A model generated the notes under the pieces. The model saw nothing but the letters and a program-made list of their open reading frames with translations, ran no database searches and had not been told where the DNA came from. A stretch of 64,000 nt of DNA. Source: Clostridia bacterium (GTDB lineage: Bacteria > Bacillota > Clostridia > Christensenellales > UBA1242). Position 1 is the first letter of the stretch, and each line of letters opens with the position of its first letter. Below, piece by piece: positions 18,313 through 24,012 of the stretch. Made by a program: the position numbers and the translations under genes. The stretch is from NCBI GenBank assembly GCA_017501645.1, contig JAFVWN010000037.1, positions 2,400 to 66,399 of the forward strand, read 5' to 3'.

Positions 18313-18939
18313 TTAATATAATAATTGATAGGTCTCGTTAATCGCTTCAGCTCTAAGACTTCGAGATTTTTTGTTTTCAACATTATTGTTTTTCTTGTCT
18401 AAATATTTATCTAAAACAACTTCCCACAAATGATTTTTCTTAATTTCTTCAATTTTTTTCTTTTGATTATAGTATCCTTTAGGTTGCCACTCCCATACAT
18501 ATTGATTTGTTTTCTTATTTAGTCTAATGTATCGCTGTCTTCCATCATCTAAGTTATATACAATTGCAAAATCACAACTATGAATAATTCTTGAATTTTC
18601 TCTGTCTTTAACTTTTATTGTTAACACTCGTGAACTGTCTTCACAATAGTCATAATCAAAATAATGATTATATTTATCAAATGCATTTTTTAAAATTTTT
18701 CTTATTTCTTCTGCAGAATAATCTTGATCTTTGTCATTAACTTCAATATTAACATCAAAATCATAACCCACATTAGATTTTAAATCTCTTGTTACCATAT
18801 TCAACGGATCACTACCAACAAAATCAAACCTAAAAGTAAAATACTCCCTTACTTCATCTTGGACTGCGTTTATAAGAGCTATCAGTTCTAATTTTGCTTG
18901 TTTTCTCTCCTTTCTGGTCACATATATAAATTCTCTCAT
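18313..18939 (-). CDS. putative Pol-beta-fold nucleotidyltransferase, stand-alone
   Basis: 208 aa with G-S...D-x-D (FVGSDPLNMVTRDLKSNVGYDFDVNIEV) and a later acidic strand HSCDFAIVY. This spacing is typical of minimal NTases. Confidence 0.4.
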   Translation of the reverse strand: MREFIYVTRKERKQAKLELIALINAVQDEVREYFTFRFDFVGSDPLNMVTRDLKSNVGYDFDVNIEVNDKDQDYSAEEIRKILKNAFDKYNHYFDYDYCEDSSRVLTIKVKDRENSRIIHSCDFAIVYNLDDGRQRYIRLNKKTNQYVWEWQPKGYYNQKKKIEEIKKNHLWEVVLDKYLDKKNNNVENKKSRSLRAEAINETYQLLY

Positions 18940-19137: not shown

Positions 19138-19890
19138 ATGAAAAAGAAAATTTTAAGTTTTATTTTAGCAATATTTTTAATTTTGCCTTGTACATTTGCA
19201 TTATCTGCTTGCAATAATGGAGATGACGAGCCTAAAACCCTAGCTGGAAAAACTGTTAGTTGTTCAGGTTTTTATGATGATTTTAACTTTAATAATGGTT
19301 TGTATTTAAGCTATGATGAAGGCCCTGAAGGGAAATACTATAACAAATATGTTACTTATAGCGAACTATTAGAAATGACACTAGGAACAGATGCTTTTAG
19401 CTATCAAAACAATGAAGCACCAACCACACTTGTTGAAGCAAAAGAGTTATTTGAACAAAAATTAAAAGATATGTTTTGCACTGCATCTGTAAATCCTTAT
19501 ATTCAATTTTCAAATGATTTAACTTATGCTAATATATTTTATTCTGCTGAAGATTTAGCAAATGGAAACAGTTCCGGACTTTATGATGTTGAATGCGTTG
19601 ATACACATAGTGGACAATATATACTAAAAGCAAATGGCGAGGAAATTGTTAGACTTTGTGCATTAAATAGCGACCACAAAGAGTTTACAATTTCTTATCA
19701 AGGTAATCCAAATTTGAGCACTCGCTTTATAACGGAATGGCTTGATTTTAATTTAGATGGCGATTGTGAAACTCAAGTAACCTTAACTGCTACTGACGGC
19801 TCTGGTGATACAATACAAAAAAGACTTGATGAAGTTTTTGGTGCTGAACAAACCATCAGTGTCGTCTTGCTTTATTCAGTTATGAAATAA
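19138..19890 (+). CDS. lipoprotein, unknown function
   Basis: Signal peptide with lipobox ALSAC and an RBS GGAGG. A hairpin terminator CTACTAG...CTAGTAGG lies downstream. Confidence 0.65.
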   Translation: MKKKILSFILAIFLILPCTFALSACNNGDDEPKTLAGKTVSCSGFYDDFNFNNGLYLSYDEGPEGKYYNKYVTYSELLEMTLGTDAFSYQNNEAPTTLVEAKELFEQKLKDMFCTASVNPYIQFSNDLTYANIFYSAEDLANGNSSGLYDVECVDTHSGQYILKANGEEIVRLCALNSDHKEFTISYQGNPNLSTRFITEWLDFNLDGDCETQVTLTATDGSGDTIQKRLDEVFGAEQTISVVLLYSVMK

Positions 19891-20042
19891 ATAAATTATA
19901 AACCTACTAGAAAAATCTAGTAGGTTTTTTCATCTCTAAAAATATATCATAAAGAAAAACTTAAAAACCAGTGTCTAAAAAATAACACACACCGACACCA
20001 CCTTCCCTTATGCCGAAACAAGTTCGGCAACCTTCGGTGCAT

Positions 20043-20301
20043 GGGTAAATTTGCTCTAGCAAATTATACCCCTTGCACACTCGAGGGGCGGAGGTTTGCA
20101 TACTCTTAGTTTTACCAATAAAAAAACCACGGATAAAATCCGTGGCGTTTTTATTGGTAGGACTGAGTGGACTTACTATCATTTATCATTATTTTAATCA
20201 TCTATATATTTACGCTTTACTATTCCCCACCTTATTTGCAAACCAAGAGGTTCGCAATGTTGCAGGGGTAAATTTGCTCTAGCAAATTATACCCCTTGCA
20301 C
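20043..20301 (-). repeat. two copies, 223 bp apart, of an identical 36-nt imperfect-palindrome element downstream of tRNA-Ile
   Basis: GGGTAAATTTGCTCTAGCAAATTATACCCCTTGCAC occurs at 20043-20078 and again at 20266-20301. Flanking sequence has diverged but keeps the hairpins. Confidence 0.85.
20155..20173 (-). repeat. orphan copy of the 3' terminal 19 nt of tRNA-Ile, followed by its own terminator
   Basis: TGGTAGGACTGAGTGGACT at 20155-20173 is identical to 20387-20405 (the tRNA-Ile 3' end). The adjacent hairpin CCACGGA-TAAAA-TCCGTGG (20127-20145) has T/A runs on both sides. Confidence 0.85.
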
Positions 20302-20386
20302 GGTTGGGGGTTGGCGGTTTAAGACCAGGGCCTATCTAGAACAAAAACAAAAATCGAACCCTTTTAGGTTCGATTTTGTTTTGTTA

Positions 20387-20463
20387 TGGTAGGACTGAGT
20401 GGACTCGAACCACCGACCCCCACCTTATCAGGGTGGTGCTCTAACCAGCTGAGCTACAGTCCT
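20387..20463 (-). tRNA. tRNA-Ile (GAT)
   Basis: The reverse complement folds as a cloverleaf. Acceptor is AGGACTG/CAGTCCT, anticodon stem-loop CCACC-CTGATAA-GGTGG, T-loop GGTTCGAGTCC, and CCA is encoded. Confidence 0.9.
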
Positions 20464-20589: not shown

Positions 20590-20666
20590 TGGTGGAGGTA
20601 AGCGGATTTGAACCGCTGACCCCCTGCTTGCAAGGCAGGTGCTCTAGCCAACTGAGCTATACCCCC
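20590..20666 (-). tRNA. tRNA-Ala (TGC)
   Basis: Reverse complement has acceptor GGGGGTA/TACCTCC with the G3:U70 alanine identity pair. Anticodon loop is CTTGCAA, T-loop GGTTCAAATCC, and CCA is encoded. Confidence 0.9.
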
Positions 20667-20843
20667 ATAGACTTTCCTCGTAAAACGCTTTTATATAATA
20701 CCAAAACACTTGCTTTTTGTCAATAATTTTTTTGAATATTTTTTATAAATTTTATTTTCTTTATATTTTTTGATAATATTCTTTCTATTTGTCCGCTTTT
20801 TTGTGCATTTAATCTTGTACTATGTCATTAGAGGTACACAACT

Positions 20844-21692
20844 ATGGAAAATTTAGAAAAAGTAGAAAAATTAATAAATCTAGCACTTAACAAAAATATT
20901 TTTGACTTTGACAACCCTGAAAGCGAAGAAAACCAAAACTTTGGAAGCTTAAACAAACCAATTCAAATAAGCATCACAGGTTTTCAACGGGTTCTTGGAA
21001 TTGGGTTCCCTACTGCTAAAGAACTTATGGATTATCTAATAGAAAATGATGCAGTTACTGAAAGCAACGGCAGATATTTTGTTATTGCTTTTGATAAATA
21101 TATTACCGCCCTTGCAACCCACTTCAACACTCTTGCACCAGAAGATATTTATATCAACAGCAGACCTAATGAAATTGAAGAATCTATGAAAGCAAGTGAT
21201 TTTTATATTCAAAGACTTAATAACCGTAATAAATATTTCAAGAAAAAGGGCAATTATTCATTAACATTAGTGCCAGACCTTAGAACTCTTCTTGAAAAAC
21301 ACACTGTTTTTAATATAGAAAAAGATAAAATTCTCGCCTTCTATGACGCAAATAAAAAACAGATTTTCAATCTTTTTAATCTTAACTCAAAAATGCTTGA
21401 AGATGACTCAAAATTTATGCACGGACTAGACTATGACGAACGAATTTGCGTAAATAAAAACGGGCAGGTGTCTTCATATATTAAAATTTATCCAACATAC
21501 AAAAAAGACCAAGAAGCAGAATGTTTGTGCCTACTTTGTATAATCATAAAACTTCTTTGGAACAAACAAAATAAAGAAAAAATCTATATGTACAAAATGT
21601 ACAAATACTCAGGCTTTAGCGGTGAAGAAATAAACGATTATTACATAAGTGACATTTGTATAAATGATGGCGAAAACTCTCTCCCTTTCTAG
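20844..21692 (+). CDS. hypothetical protein with an N-terminal FtsK-gamma-like winged-helix domain
   Basis: 282 aa. Residues about 38-80 (ISITGFQRVLGIGFPTAKELMDYLIENDAVTESNGRY) follow the FtsK gamma pattern S-I-S-x-L-Q-R-x-h-x-I-G-[FY]-x-x-A-x-x-h-h-D-x-L-E-x-x-G-h-V. I recognise nothing in the rest of the protein. Confidence 0.5.
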   Translation: MENLEKVEKLINLALNKNIFDFDNPESEENQNFGSLNKPIQISITGFQRVLGIGFPTAKELMDYLIENDAVTESNGRYFVIAFDKYITALATHFNTLAPEDIYINSRPNEIEESMKASDFYIQRLNNRNKYFKKKGNYSLTLVPDLRTLLEKHTVFNIEKDKILAFYDANKKQIFNLFNLNSKMLEDDSKFMHGLDYDERICVNKNGQVSSYIKIYPTYKKDQEAECLCLLCIIIKLLWNKQNKEKIYMYKMYKYSGFSGEEINDYYISDICINDGENSLPF

Positions 21693-21703
21693 AGGTAATA
21701 ATA

Positions 21704-22542
21704 TGAAAATATTAAGCGTATATATCAAAAATTTTCAAGGAATAAGCGAACTTGAAGTAGACACTGACGCAAAGATTATAGTTGTAAAAGGTTCAAATGG
21801 TGCAGGAAAAACAAGCTTTATTTCTGCAATAGAGTGGTGTTTATGTTCTGTTCCAAGAATAAGAACAACATTAAATGCAAAAGAAACAACCGTCCGCTTA
21901 AAAATAGAAAAAGACAATCAAATTTATGAACTTGAAACAACTAAATTTTGTGAAAACGACAAAACTTTTATGCATTTTTTTATCACAAAAAACAACACAA
22001 AAACAGAAGTTAAATTCAACGATTACTCAAATTTTATTGAAGAAACCTTTATCAAAAACCCATATTTTTATATGAATTTTATTGACTCGCTTTACTATGG
22101 AACTAAAAAAGGAATAGGCCTAACACTTTCTCACGAAAATATAAAACAAATCAACAATTTTGCTCAAAGACTTGGCTTCCCTATCCCCGGAAGACGCCTT
22201 GTGTTTTCTGGAAATTTGGATTGCGATATTTATATTAACTCACACAAACTTTCAGGAGGCTATTACTCTTCAGGAGACAATGTTTTGCGAATGACAACAG
22301 CAAAAATTATAGCTGTAAAGTTTATTGAAGAGCTTTTACAAAACTCAACCGCACAAAAAAATGTCTTACCTTTGTTTATTGATGATGTTTTTTTAATGGT
22401 AAGCAATGAATATGTATTTTATGTGTGCGAATATCTTCAAAAACTAGGCAATCAAATATTTGTAACAAATAACAATAGTCAGTTGTCTTTCACAAACAAG
22501 AGTGTAAAATATTTAGACTTAGATAATCTTAATAAATCTTAG
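21704..22542 (+). CDS. minimal ABC/SMC-RecF-type ATPase (no coiled coil, no transporter domain)
   Basis: N-terminus MKILSVYIKNFQGISELEV...VVKGSNGAGKTSFISAIEW (Walker A), signature HKLSGG, and Walker B LPLFIDDVF. Start set at ATG 21704 after the GAGG RBS, 11 bp after the upstream stop. Confidence 0.7.
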
Positions 22543-22586
22543 ACATTGTAATTTTTCTATGATATAATTAACAAAAGAGGTAAAAA

Positions 22587-23576
22587 ATGGCAAGTAGTAG
22601 TAACAAAAAATTATCAATATTATATGTTCTAAGAATATTAGAAAAATATAGTGACGAAAATCACCTTTTAACACAAGAAGACATTGTTCAAAAAATCTAT
22701 TCAACATACGGAATGGAATGCGAAAGAAAGTCTATTGGTGCAAGCTTAGACAGCCTTGAAGAGCTTGGTTATGACATTGTAAGAGTCCCAAGAAAAGGCT
22801 GTTTTTTAGGTGAGCGAGCTTTTGAAAACAGTGAAGTTTCATACTTAATTGATGCCATCTTTTCAAGCAAAGTAATACCTAGTTCACAAGCAAGAAAACT
22901 AGCCGAAAAAGTATCTTCAAAACTTAGTATTTATGATGCAAAAAAATTTAAGTACATATACAAAGCTGATGAGATTTCTAGAAGCGACAACAAACAAGTT
23001 TTCTATACAATAGACATAATCAATCAAGCTATTGAAAAAGGTAAAAAAATCAAGTTTAAGTACAACAAATACATACAAAACAATCAAATTCAAGAGCGAG
23101 CAAACGGTAAGTTCTACACCGTAAACCCATATTTTATGGTAAACAGCCAAGGCAAATACTACCTTGTTTGCAACTATGACCATTTTGACGATTTGGCAAA
23201 CTATCGCATTGAACTTATTACAGAAATTGAAATTATAGACAGTGATATCAAACCAATTACAGAAATAAAAGGCTATGATAAAGGTATTGACATTGCCAAA
23301 TATGTAAACGAAAACATCTATATGTTTGGAGGAGAACACATAGAGGCATTGCTAAAAATCGAAAATGAAAAAGCTGTTTCTTATGTTTATGAATGGTTTG
23401 GTAAAAATGCAAGAGTGTACGAAAAGAACTCTACTATATTTGCAGATGTAAAAACTAACGAAATGGCTCTTGTTTACTGGACTTTACAATATGGGGAGTC
23501 CGTTGAAGTCATCTCTCCTGATAGCACTCGTCAAAAAATTAAGGACATTATCACAAAAATGTATAAAAAATATTAA
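22587..23576 (+). CDS. WYL-domain transcriptional regulator (BrxR/CapW/PafBC-like: wHTH + WYL + WCX)
   Basis: 329 aa. N-terminal wHTH (LSILYVLRILEKYSDENHLLTQEDIV...). WYL core KFYTVNPYFMVNSQGKYYLVCNYDHFDDLANYRIELI. C-terminal WCX-like LVYWTLQYGESVEVISPDSTRQKI. Confidence 0.8.
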   Translation: MASSSNKKLSILYVLRILEKYSDENHLLTQEDIVQKIYSTYGMECERKSIGASLDSLEELGYDIVRVPRKGCFLGERAFENSEVSYLIDAIFSSKVIPSSQARKLAEKVSSKLSIYDAKKFKYIYKADEISRSDNKQVFYTIDIINQAIEKGKKIKFKYNKYIQNNQIQERANGKFYTVNPYFMVNSQGKYYLVCNYDHFDDLANYRIELITEIEIIDSDIKPITEIKGYDKGIDIAKYVNENIYMFGGEHIEALLKIENEKAVSYVYEWFGKNARVYEKNSTIFADVKTNEMALVYWTLQYGESVEVISPDSTRQKIKDIITKMYKKY

Positions 23577-23577
23577 A

Positions 23578-23603
23578 AGACTGTTAACAACAGTCTTTTT
23601 TTT
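23578..23603. terminator. bidirectional intrinsic terminator between convergent genes
   Basis: AGACTGTT-AAC-AACAGTCT hairpin, flanked by an A-run upstream and a T8 run downstream. Confidence 0.7.
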
Positions 23604-24012
23604 ATCTTTCAAATTCTTCAATATCTTGAAGTTTTTTGATGTCTACCAAATATTTAGTTTCAAACTTGTTGACAGGCAACGCATATTCTTTTTCAACTTC
23701 ATAATCAACATCATAGCCAGACGGCATATATCTTCCATATGAACAATGCGTAAAAAGTTTTCTAAACGGAATATTGAATGTTCCAACAAAGTACTGCCCC
23801 TCTTCCGTGAAAGATATTGAGCGAAGATACCTATTTATTGCCGTTTGATTTTTAAAAAAATGAAGATATTTTACACCCTTTTTATATCTATGATTGTTTG
23901 GAAGAGTCAAGCCATAAAAACAACCCCCAAGACACTCCTTTTTCCCTGCGGTTAACAATTCAAACTCTTTTTCATTCATAATTCTATATACTAACATATT
24001 TTTATTATACAC
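23602..24012 (-). CDS. hypothetical protein (136 aa), convergent with the WYL operon
   Basis: Uninterrupted ORF with no family recognised. See findings for a weak R / S-x-S / E-x-E spacing. Confidence 0.45.
   Translation of the reverse strand: MYNKNMLVYRIMNEKEFELLTAGKKECLGGCFYGLTLPNNHRYKKGVKYLHFFKNQTAINRYLRSISFTEEGQYFVGTFNIPFRKLFTHCSYGRYMPSGYDVDYEVEKEYALPVNKFETKYLVDIKKLQDIEEFER

Follow-up and report, generated by a model that had tools for sequence, protein, structure and literature searches.

What function can be assigned to three neighbouring genes that combine a winged-helix protein, an ABC/SMC-type ATPase and a WYL-type transcription regulator? The question is raised by a locus in a 64-kb stretch of an uncultured Clostridia genome (contig JAFVWN010000037.1), called the window below, in which a first-pass annotation had picked out the three genes as a candidate defence module. 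We refer to them as g1, g2 and g3, and together as the triad. The reading we favour, to which we give a probability of roughly 0.45, is that g1 and g2 are a two-gene cargo in a variable slot controlled by g3, most likely a rare anti-phage or anti-foreign-DNA system. The features on which the argument turns are the following (window positions).

20790-20823, forward strand: conserved regulatory box, TGTCC-GCTTTTTT-GTGCA, followed after 10 nucleotides (nt) by a -10-like TACTAT at 20818-20823
20844-21692, forward strand: g1, 282 amino acids (aa), from the open reading frame (ORF) listing
21703-22542, forward strand: g2, 279 aa, with an alternative ATG at 21664
22540-22568, forward strand: promoter of g3 itself, TAGACA-17-TGaTATAAT, with an extended -10, found in all four lineages that carry the triad
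22587-23576, forward strand: g3, 329 aa, a winged helix-turn-helix (wHTH)-WYL-WCX transcription regulator
23575-23599, bidirectional: intrinsic terminator with an 11-base-pair (bp) stem, common to g3 and the convergent gene g4

The sister loci of g3 were collected from 31 species-representative genomes in GTDB and 19 metagenome contigs. The sister orthologues are 45-62% identical, and some of their sources are named Christensenella or Candidatus Onthoplasma. Both g1 and g2 are absent from all 49 other g3-orthologue loci, where the cargo changes from locus to locus and is largely of conflict type. Among 136 neighbouring proteins, matches included IetA-like AAA+ proteins (18), HEC-05 (6), HEC-06 (5), UzuA (5), mad3 (4) and mad8 (3), both HEC families being of GmrSD type. 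Counted by locus, IetA-like fusions of an AAA+ ATPase to an M41 peptidase occur in about 12 sister loci, GmrSD-type enzymes (HEC-05, HEC-06) in nine and UzuA (Uzume) in five. Further cargo comprises CbxX-type AAA+ proteins, metallophosphatases, macro-domain proteins, DUF2779 proteins, an McrB-like AAA_5 protein and tyrosine integrases, and some loci hold FtsK/SpoIIIE ATPases with a gamma domain. WYL regulators are known to control defence islands and to sense single-stranded DNA (PMC9122601, PMC11662680). Because sister species fill the same WYL-controlled slot with recognised defence genes, g1-g2 is probably a defence or conflict module.

Gamma-type winged helices, of which g1 carries one, recur in these loci. 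An iterated gamma-domain profile recovered 15 gamma-type winged-helix proteins in 14 of 30 WYL loci, and g1 and nothing else in 132 kb of control sequence. A recurrent unannotated cassette was also seen ahead of g3 orthologues, behind the same operator (L022-L071; L numbers denote the fetched loci). Its parts are an AAA+-M41 fusion or a CbxX-type AAA+ protein (660-695 aa), together with a metallophosphatase, a macro-domain protein and/or a small gamma-type winged-helix protein, as in L024 3862-5909, L023 2275-5923, L041 1649-3285 and L051 3466-5927. These sister cassettes may represent one or more undescribed systems.

An operator-like box is common to g1 and the cargo of the sister loci. Ahead of g1 lies a 34-nt conserved element, TGTCCGnTTTTTTG(T/G)GC with a fixed spacer and a -10 element, and its part at 20790-20807 forms an imperfect inverted repeat of the type TGTCC-N8-GGACA; no -35 hexamer was found at 16-18 nt spacing from the g1 -10. 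The box is invariant in all four triad lineages, and its 17-nt core occurs once in the 64-kb window, against 0.11 occurrences expected. The identical 17-mer stands ahead of unrelated cargo genes in L024 and L032, two loci fetched solely as carriers of a g3 orthologue. A position-weight-matrix scan added 13 boxes, spread over 11 of 30 WYL-orthologue loci; each shares its strand with the adjacent called cargo ORF and sits just upstream of it or at its 5' end. The scan added no box in a control set of about 0.15 Mb, made up of the window and nine non-WYL loci (L013-L021). The consensus of the matrix boxes is a TGTCC-N8-GGACA palindrome placed 10 nt upstream of an extended -10. Perfect copies of this palindrome number 13 in 326 kb of WYL loci versus none in 99 kb of control sequence, and the result was replicated with seven copies in 131 kb of independent metagenome WYL loci. 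The promoter of the WYL gene itself has the palindrome across its -35 in five species, as expected of a regulator's own operator; in the triad lineages, the promoter of g3 carries a half-site only. Such a pattern is what the operator of a winged-helix regulator that binds as a dimer should show.

The operator exists in two conserved forms, the perfect palindrome TGTCC-N8-GGACA, whose sequence version is TGTCCGTTTTTTTGGACA, and the asymmetric TGTCCGnTTTTTTG(T/G)GC (L024 8635-8668, L032 227-260, window 20790-20823). Because both forms coexist within L024 and L032, the asymmetric one is not simply a product of decay.

The triad itself is rare and its linkage is tight. A word-indexed search of 5.8 billion proteins returned four g1 homologues, and an exhaustive profile search of 1.84 billion representative proteins returned only the g1 family and two fragments. 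The remaining significant matches of the g1 profile were confined to residues 17-106, and most of these proteins pass the Pfam FtsK_gamma threshold. No g1 relative was found in GTDB representative genomes, IMG/VR, JGI metagenomes, phages or plasmids. The four triad lineages, all uncultured Clostridia, are the window species (L007-L012), GCA_017397365.1 and its relatives (L004-L006), L003, and L001 with L002. In every one of them g1, g2 and g3 adjoin in the same order, and the persistence of this linkage despite only 39-66% identity of g1 and g2 argues for our reading. Non-co-occurrence of g1 and g2 homologues, which the first-pass annotation had named as a finding that would sink its proposal, was not observed, since the two genes occur together in four of four lineages.

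The surroundings are conserved on one side and variable on the other. A tRNA-Ile/tRNA-Ala gene pair lies beside the triad in three of the four lineages, that is, in all for which upstream sequence is available, and because this neighbourhood is conserved between lineages, the position of the triad is inherited and not a fresh insertion. Downstream, the triad is followed by g4 and then tex in the window species, by a lipoprotein gene and then bipA in L001, and by g4 and then cas9 in L004/L005 and L003, with cas1 and cas2 next in L003. Identity between lineages is 70-85% for g3, 50-62% for g1 and 39-66% for g2; for the L003-L004 pair it is 77% for g3, 73% for the two Cas9 proteins, 62% for g1 and 40% for g2. 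The outlier for g1 is L001 (50-53%) and that for g2 is L003 (39-40%), the closest g2 pair being the window and L001 (66%). Because the identity patterns of g1 and g2 disagree, they suggest uneven rates or recombination between the two genes. In the two lineages with cas9, type II CRISPR-Cas begins about 300 bp beyond g4 (L003 3681-8258, L004 4016-7683, L005 4037-6795); cas1 and cas2 were seen in L003, whereas the sequences of L004 and L005 break off at cas9 or directly behind it.

How are the three genes expressed? The gene order in the window is tRNA-Ala, g1, g2, g3, convergent g4 (23602-24012) and tex, and the ORF listing confirms three co-directional ORFs on the forward strand, as had been claimed. 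Of the gaps given earlier, 44 nt between g2 and g3 is right, whereas the supposed 11 bp between g1 and g2 are actually 10 nt; the shared terminator is real as well, and we place it at 23575-23599 instead of 23578-23603, with a T run directly after it. The GAGGT ribosome-binding site of g2 overlaps the stop codon of g1, in L003 this stop codon even runs into the start codon of g2, and translation of the two genes looks coupled. No terminator was predicted between g1, g2 and g3. The triad had been described as a single operon, but g3 carries a strong promoter of its own, kept as TTAGACA-17-TGnTATAAT across the four lineages, and the triad therefore comprises at least two transcription units. Apart from this single-operon part, the idea of a defence candidate gains support from the defence genes beside the WYL orthologues and from the operator box that g1 shares with their cargo.

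The product of g1 divides into two parts.

Residues ~37-96 (20952-21131, forward strand): FtsK-gamma-like winged helix, preceded by an N-terminal helix, from profiles and AlphaFold
Residues ~100-282 (21141-21689, forward strand): C-terminal domain without a detectable relative

Both had been anticipated in the first-pass annotation, which described an N-terminal FtsK-gamma-like wHTH and a remainder that it could not place. The Pfam FtsK_gamma model (PF09397) scores 22.1 bits at residues 41-76 of g1, below its gathering threshold of 30.6, and matches all four members of the g1 family (best E value 5e-5); the best PDB sequence matches are likewise FtsK gamma domains, at E values of only 0.1-0.2. 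An AlphaFold2 model built on a four-sequence alignment has a mean predicted local distance difference test (pLDDT) score of 56 and is confident only at the winged helix (residues 40-100, pLDDT 74-89). Because all four family members match, the gamma-domain matches are reciprocal, FtsK gamma domains lead the PDB matches and AlphaFold predicts a winged helix, the gamma-like call is reasonable despite the sub-threshold Pfam score.

The C-terminal domain carries the invariant motifs RNKYFxKKG, LDYDE, SxxKIYPT, CLCL and WNxQN, ends in PF, and has numerous invariant polar residues across positions 100-282. Family profiles of this half found no match in Pfam, PADLOC, PHROGs, NCBIfam or PDB sequences, and Foldseek with the g1 model against PDB and BFVD returned generic winged-helix proteins only, none at an E value of 0.001 or below. 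An hhalign comparison of the C-terminal half and of g2 with 22 sister-locus cargo families revealed no kinship beyond the P-loop. DruC, the lone PADLOC match of g1 (E value 0.012, in one of four members), was judged to be a chance match. Speculatively, the domain could be a divergent nuclease that uses E186, D196/D198 and K214 on a predicted helix-hairpin-helix core. Neither g1 nor g2 contains a transmembrane segment.

Two class memberships hold for the triad, that of g2 among ABC/SMC-type ATPases and that of g3 among WYL-WCX regulators. In Pfam, g2 passes the thresholds of AAA_23 (41.6 bits, threshold 27) and AAA_15 (32.9 bits, threshold 32.1), and SMC_N reaches 35.9 bits over residues 5-256, just under its threshold of 40. 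The Walker A, LSGG and Walker B motifs reported earlier are present and kept in homologues: Walker A is formed by G30-K36-T37 (GxxGxGKT), the signature by L183-S-G-G186 and Walker B by F225-I-D227-D228 (FIDDVF), and Walker A, LSGG and the Walker B Asp are invariant in five homologues. The protein fails the canonical ABC/SMC catalytic set, which consists of a Glu after the Walker B Asp, a Q-loop Gln and an H-loop His. It has Asp in place of the catalytic Glu (D228) and Asn250 in place of the H-loop His, and the homologue alignment shows no invariant Q-loop Gln between Walker A and the signature. Degenerate ABC catalytic motifs point to slow turnover, and the g2 sequence suggests an ATP-binding, dimerising switch that turns over slowly.

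The scans also agree with the earlier statement that g2 has no coiled coil, transmembrane segment or nuclease domain. Walker A and the signature are separated by only about 145 residues and the profile matches end at residue 116-135, leaving no coiled coil; the maximum Kyte-Doolittle value is 1.33, without a transmembrane segment; and no nuclease domain was detected in PADLOC, NCBIfam, PHROGs or Pfam. PADLOC, NCBIfam and PHROGs models match only the P-loop lobe (LmuB, PtuA, AriA, RecF, Rad50, SbcC). The best NCBIfam match is RecF TIGR00611, with 41.5 bits in two stretches and a cut-off of 172 that is not reached, and the nearest solved relatives in a PDB sequence search are Rad50 heads. Identity to phage SbcC-like proteins is just 28%, in the N-terminal half. 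Judged by its sequence, g2 is a minimal RecF/Rad50-type ABC/SMC-head ATPase without a coiled coil.

The identification of g3 as a WYL-WCX regulator stands on Pfam matches above threshold to both WYL (38.2 bits, threshold 21.8) and WCX (30.7 bits, threshold 23.9); its N-terminal winged helix received no separate Pfam call. Among PADLOC models, a CRISPR-associated WYL profile matches g3 most strongly (96 bits, residues 24-313). The regulators BrxR and CapW recognise promoter-overlapping palindromes about 20 bp long, and CapW is freed from its operator by single-stranded DNA (PMC9122601, PMC11662680).

Under the defence reading, the locus might work as follows. By analogy with CapW and BrxR, a g3 dimer on the palindrome at 20790-20807 (about -40 to -23 of an extended-10-type promoter) would keep g1-g2 expression low. 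As in CapW, DriD and PafBC, single-stranded DNA or another product of infection or damage may then bind the WYL domain and induce g1-g2. The two proteins would form a complex in which the winged helix of g1 contacts double-stranded DNA and g2, to judge from its degenerate motifs, serves as a slowly hydrolysing clamp or switch that dimerises in an ATP-dependent manner. More speculatively, ATP-gated engagement on target DNA could activate the C-terminal domain of g1 as an effector. The ATPase-partner logic of this scheme is drawn from PARIS, Septu and Lamassu, and the release of g3 from CapW. A bolder and more tentative extension is possible, in which g1-g2 would be a new two-component immune system made up of a head-only RecF/Rad50-like clamp and a gamma-type wHTH protein with a new effector fold. 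It would be one of a wider set of undescribed cassettes in Christensenellales-like Clostridia, in which one conserved WYL regulator would govern exchangeable cargo through the TGTCC-N8-GGACA operator, with gamma-type wHTH proteins as recurrent DNA-recognition subunits for varied NTPases (ABC, AAA+-M41 protease, CbxX-type AAA+, FtsK-like).

Several observations weigh against a defence function under g3 control. The neighbours of the triad in the window are housekeeping genes (tex, mgtE and a gene for an MscS-type channel), with no defence island. WYL regulators also govern DNA-damage responses, and their cargo need not be defence. As a bare inverted repeat, the g1 box is indistinguishable from chance in the window, and its right half-site is degenerate in the triad lineages (GTGCA or GGGCT), a variant that recurs at two cargo promoters elsewhere. 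We infer binding of the box by g3 from co-occurrence alone. Where CapW/BrxR repressors have RWHVR, g3 reads KYYLVC (G-K-Y-Y-L-V-C), and its profile matched no solved WYL regulator in PDB at E values up to 0.01, BrxR and CapW structures included. Because of these two results the regulatory sign of g3, repressor or activator, stays at candidate level, and membership in the CapW/BrxR subgroup is not demonstrable from the sequence. On the cargo side, library profiles recognise no effector domain in g1 or g2, the C-terminal half of g1 is modelled with a pLDDT below 50, and the AlphaFold2 model of g2 (three-sequence alignment, mean pLDDT 46) is too poor for a fold search.

Other explanations account for parts of the same evidence. 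The pair g1-g2 could serve DNA-damage or recombination repair, with g2 as a RecF-like ATPase, g1 as a RecR/RecO-like partner and g3 as a damage-inducing activator like DriD or PafBC. This would suit the rank of RecF as best NCBIfam match of g2 and of Rad50 heads as its closest solved relatives, and the Walker B 'DD' and missing H-loop His presumably resemble RecF too. The g1 promoter has a regulator site in place of a -35, a geometry that we take to recall PafBC-activated promoters. WYL activators that sense single-stranded DNA do exist (PMC11662680, PMC12041258). However, a RecF score of 41.5 against a cut-off of 172, the restriction to four lineages among 1.84 billion representatives, the restriction enzymes and conflict genes in sister slots, and a divergence of g1 and g2 that outpaces that of g3 and cas9, which is unusual for repair genes, make this role unlikely. 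Another account is that the adjacency is incidental, g3 regulating other genes and g1-g2 forming an independent, possibly decaying pair. The order g1-g2-g3 has nevertheless been kept in four lineages while downstream neighbours changed, the box 17-mer is invariant ahead of g1 and common to other WYL-locus cargo, and both the g1 and the g2 ORF are unbroken and retain conserved catalytic and other motifs. Although the separate promoter of g3, its far better conservation, its occurrence without g1-g2 in 49 loci and the degenerate half-site of the g1 box speak for it, mere adjacency is quite improbable.

The proximity of cas9 raises the further idea that the triad is an accessory or regulatory unit of type II CRISPR-Cas, in which g3 would be a CRISPR-associated WYL protein and g1-g2 would aid Cas9 or spacer acquisition. 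It draws on the position of the cassette upstream of cas9 in two of four lineages, with cas1 and cas2 added in L003, on the best PADLOC match of g3, and on the report that about 10% of defence systems beside BrxR-family regulators are CRISPR-Cas (PMC9122601). The triads of the window and L001 have no cas genes nearby, though, and a Cas9 tblastn search was empty across the whole window. A Cas9 relative was found in none of the 31 GTDB WYL-orthologue loci covered by this check (the 19 metagenome loci lie outside it), and the operator box stands ahead of g1 and not ahead of cas9; we regard such a role as very improbable. The weakest reading, with little in its favour, is that of mobile-element maintenance, which had been offered as an alternative to defence, or of segregation or chromosome organisation; here g1 would recognise a DNA motif much as FtsK does KOPS, with g2 as an SMC-like DNA handler. 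The pairing of an FtsK-gamma-like with an SMC-head-like domain fits it, as do the attachment-site-like scars at the adjoining tRNA genes and the integrases or FtsK/SpoIIIE-type ATPases in some WYL-orthologue loci. It is contradicted by the lack of g1 relatives in phage, plasmid and IMG/VR collections, by the surroundings of the four triads, which hold no gene for an integrase, for replication or for conjugation, by the position of the triad on the tRNA-promoter side, which is conserved between lineages, and by the absence from g2 of a coiled coil with which to entrap DNA.

The tRNA side of the locus and the remaining neighbours comprise the following features.

20387-20463, reverse strand: tRNA-Ile, from a tRNA search
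20590-20666, reverse strand: tRNA-Ala, from a tRNA search
23602-24012, reverse strand: g4, 136 aa, convergent with g3 and followed by tex
18313-18939, reverse strand: gene for a 208-aa protein whose GS...DxD pattern recalls small nucleotidyltransferases
19138-19890, forward strand: gene for a 250-aa predicted lipoprotein

The integration scars noted at the tRNA locus do exist. The 3' end of tRNA-Ile recurs as a 26-nt partial copy at 20148-20173 (pairing with 20380-20405), and a 60-nt hairpin-containing repeat is found at 20038-20097 and 20261-20320, its copies being 87% identical. Together they mark a unit of about 225-232 bp, duplicated downstream of tRNA-Ile, that holds the 60-nt element and the 26-nt tRNA copy and looks like attachment-site scars; one repeat copy has a sub-threshold Rfam match to HPnc0260 (44 bits, threshold 59). 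The scars lie beyond the 3' ends of the tRNAs, away from the triad, which is on the promoter side. Adjacency to the tRNAs is no sign of recent insertion, as the position is conserved in the three of four lineages with upstream sequence, and the idea of the triad as cargo of a tRNA-integrated island was rejected on grounds of position and synteny. The genes at 18313-18939 and 19138-19890, both of them between the scarred tRNA-Ile end and core genes, may be remnant island cargo; the sole match of the 208-aa protein is a very weak one to the PADLOC model 'Cyclase' (E value 0.24).

The g4 family consists of 15 proteins, all from Clostridia, with invariant YR, KYLHFFK, GYDxD and ExEYAxP, and no Pfam, PADLOC or NCBIfam model matched it. 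Close copies follow the WYL gene in three lineages (window, L003 2969-3388, L004 3342-3755), and distant ones lie between rplA and rplJ or upstream of rpmG-secE-nusG (L013 6001-6579, L019 6001-6459, L016 6001-6402). As a candidate for the missing effector, g4 was rejected, being absent from L001 and having distant relatives in ribosomal-protein operons without the triad.

If g1-g2 is indeed a defence system, it would add to ATPase-based immunity a minimal head-only ABC-ATPase architecture with degenerate catalysis, together with a novel domain that acts as effector or sensor. Through the operator box and the 49 sister loci, a limited and manageable group of WYL-regulated genes in uncultured gut Clostridia can be delimited and searched for more unannotated cargo through guilt by association. 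That FtsK-gamma-type winged helices turn up repeatedly with unrelated NTPases may point to a common mode of DNA recognition. The practical reach is limited by rarity, as only four lineages carry the triad, all of them metagenome-assembled, and by the lack of a cultured host.

How does the triad compare with known systems? It had been presented as matching no named system, and this holds in PADLOC, NCBIfam, PHROGs and Pfam, where g2 draws only generic P-loop matches and the C-terminal half of g1 draws none. No component has a full-length match to any PADLOC-DB v2 system, g2 having N-terminal matches only and g1 the lone weak DruC match. Like PARIS (AriA/AriB), Septu (PtuA/PtuB) and AbiL (AbiLi/AbiLii), the triad places the gene of a non-transporter ABC/SMC-type ATPase beside that of a second protein, which by this comparison is probably complexed with the ATPase and carries the output activity. 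AriA, PtuA and AbiLi models match the g2 N-terminus at E values of 1e-9 to 5e-12, but only over its first 100-135 residues, the P-loop lobe. The ATPases of these systems have about 340-550 aa, whereas g2 has 279 and lacks their insertions; g1 has a gamma-type winged helix and an unmatched domain instead of TOPRIM, DUF4435 or HNH; and in the triad the partner gene comes first and the ATPase gene second. Assignment to PARIS fails because AriA matches only g2 residues 1-134 (36.8 bits) and g1 shows no AriB, TOPRIM or DUF4435 in PADLOC or Pfam, and assignment to Septu fails because PtuA models cover only g2 residues 1-102 and no HNH is present in g1, g3 or g4.

With Lamassu and Wadjet, the triad shares an SMC/Rad50-type head; LmuB is the best PADLOC match of g2 (47 bits) and JetC is among its weak PDB matches. 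The class of SMC, Rad50, LmuB and JetC is marked by a long antiparallel coiled coil between the head halves, which g2 lacks, and without a coiled coil or hinge, loop extrusion or entrapment would be impossible. The triad also has no counterparts of LmuA, LmuC, JetA, JetB or JetD. The triad also recalls RecF, which acts with RecO and RecR, and the Rad50 head, SMC-like ATPases that are compact or head-only and work on DNA together with a partner that binds it. The scores of g2 are nonetheless far under the family cut-offs, it is shorter than RecF, g1 is unrelated to RecR, RecO or Mre11, and the triad is patchy and fast-evolving.

On the regulatory side, g3 resembles BrxR, CapW, PafBC and DriD in its WYL and WCX domains and in a palindromic operator that overlaps the promoter. 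As with BrxR and CapW, its orthologues are flanked by diverse defence cargo, including type IV restriction enzymes and CRISPR-Cas (PMC9122601, PMC11662680). It differs from these two in lying downstream of its g1-g2 cargo with its own promoter and in having KYYLVC instead of RWHVR. The FtsK gamma domain, which reads KOPS and activates XerD, shares the winged-helix fold with g1 and a similar motif (ISITGFQRxLxIGFxxA versus SISxVQRxxxIGYNRA), whereas the gamma-like domain of g1 is N-terminal in a small protein without a translocase motor, and we found no evidence of KOPS reading. Finally, although the NTPase of the triad is of the ABC type and no ORC/Cdc6 ATPase or recognisable nuclease accompanies it, the HerA/FtsK-anchored 'capture' systems offer a close parallel in outline, since they too join a fast-evolving DNA-binding winged helix to a P-loop NTPase in a context of conflict genes (PMC12839542, PMC10853773).

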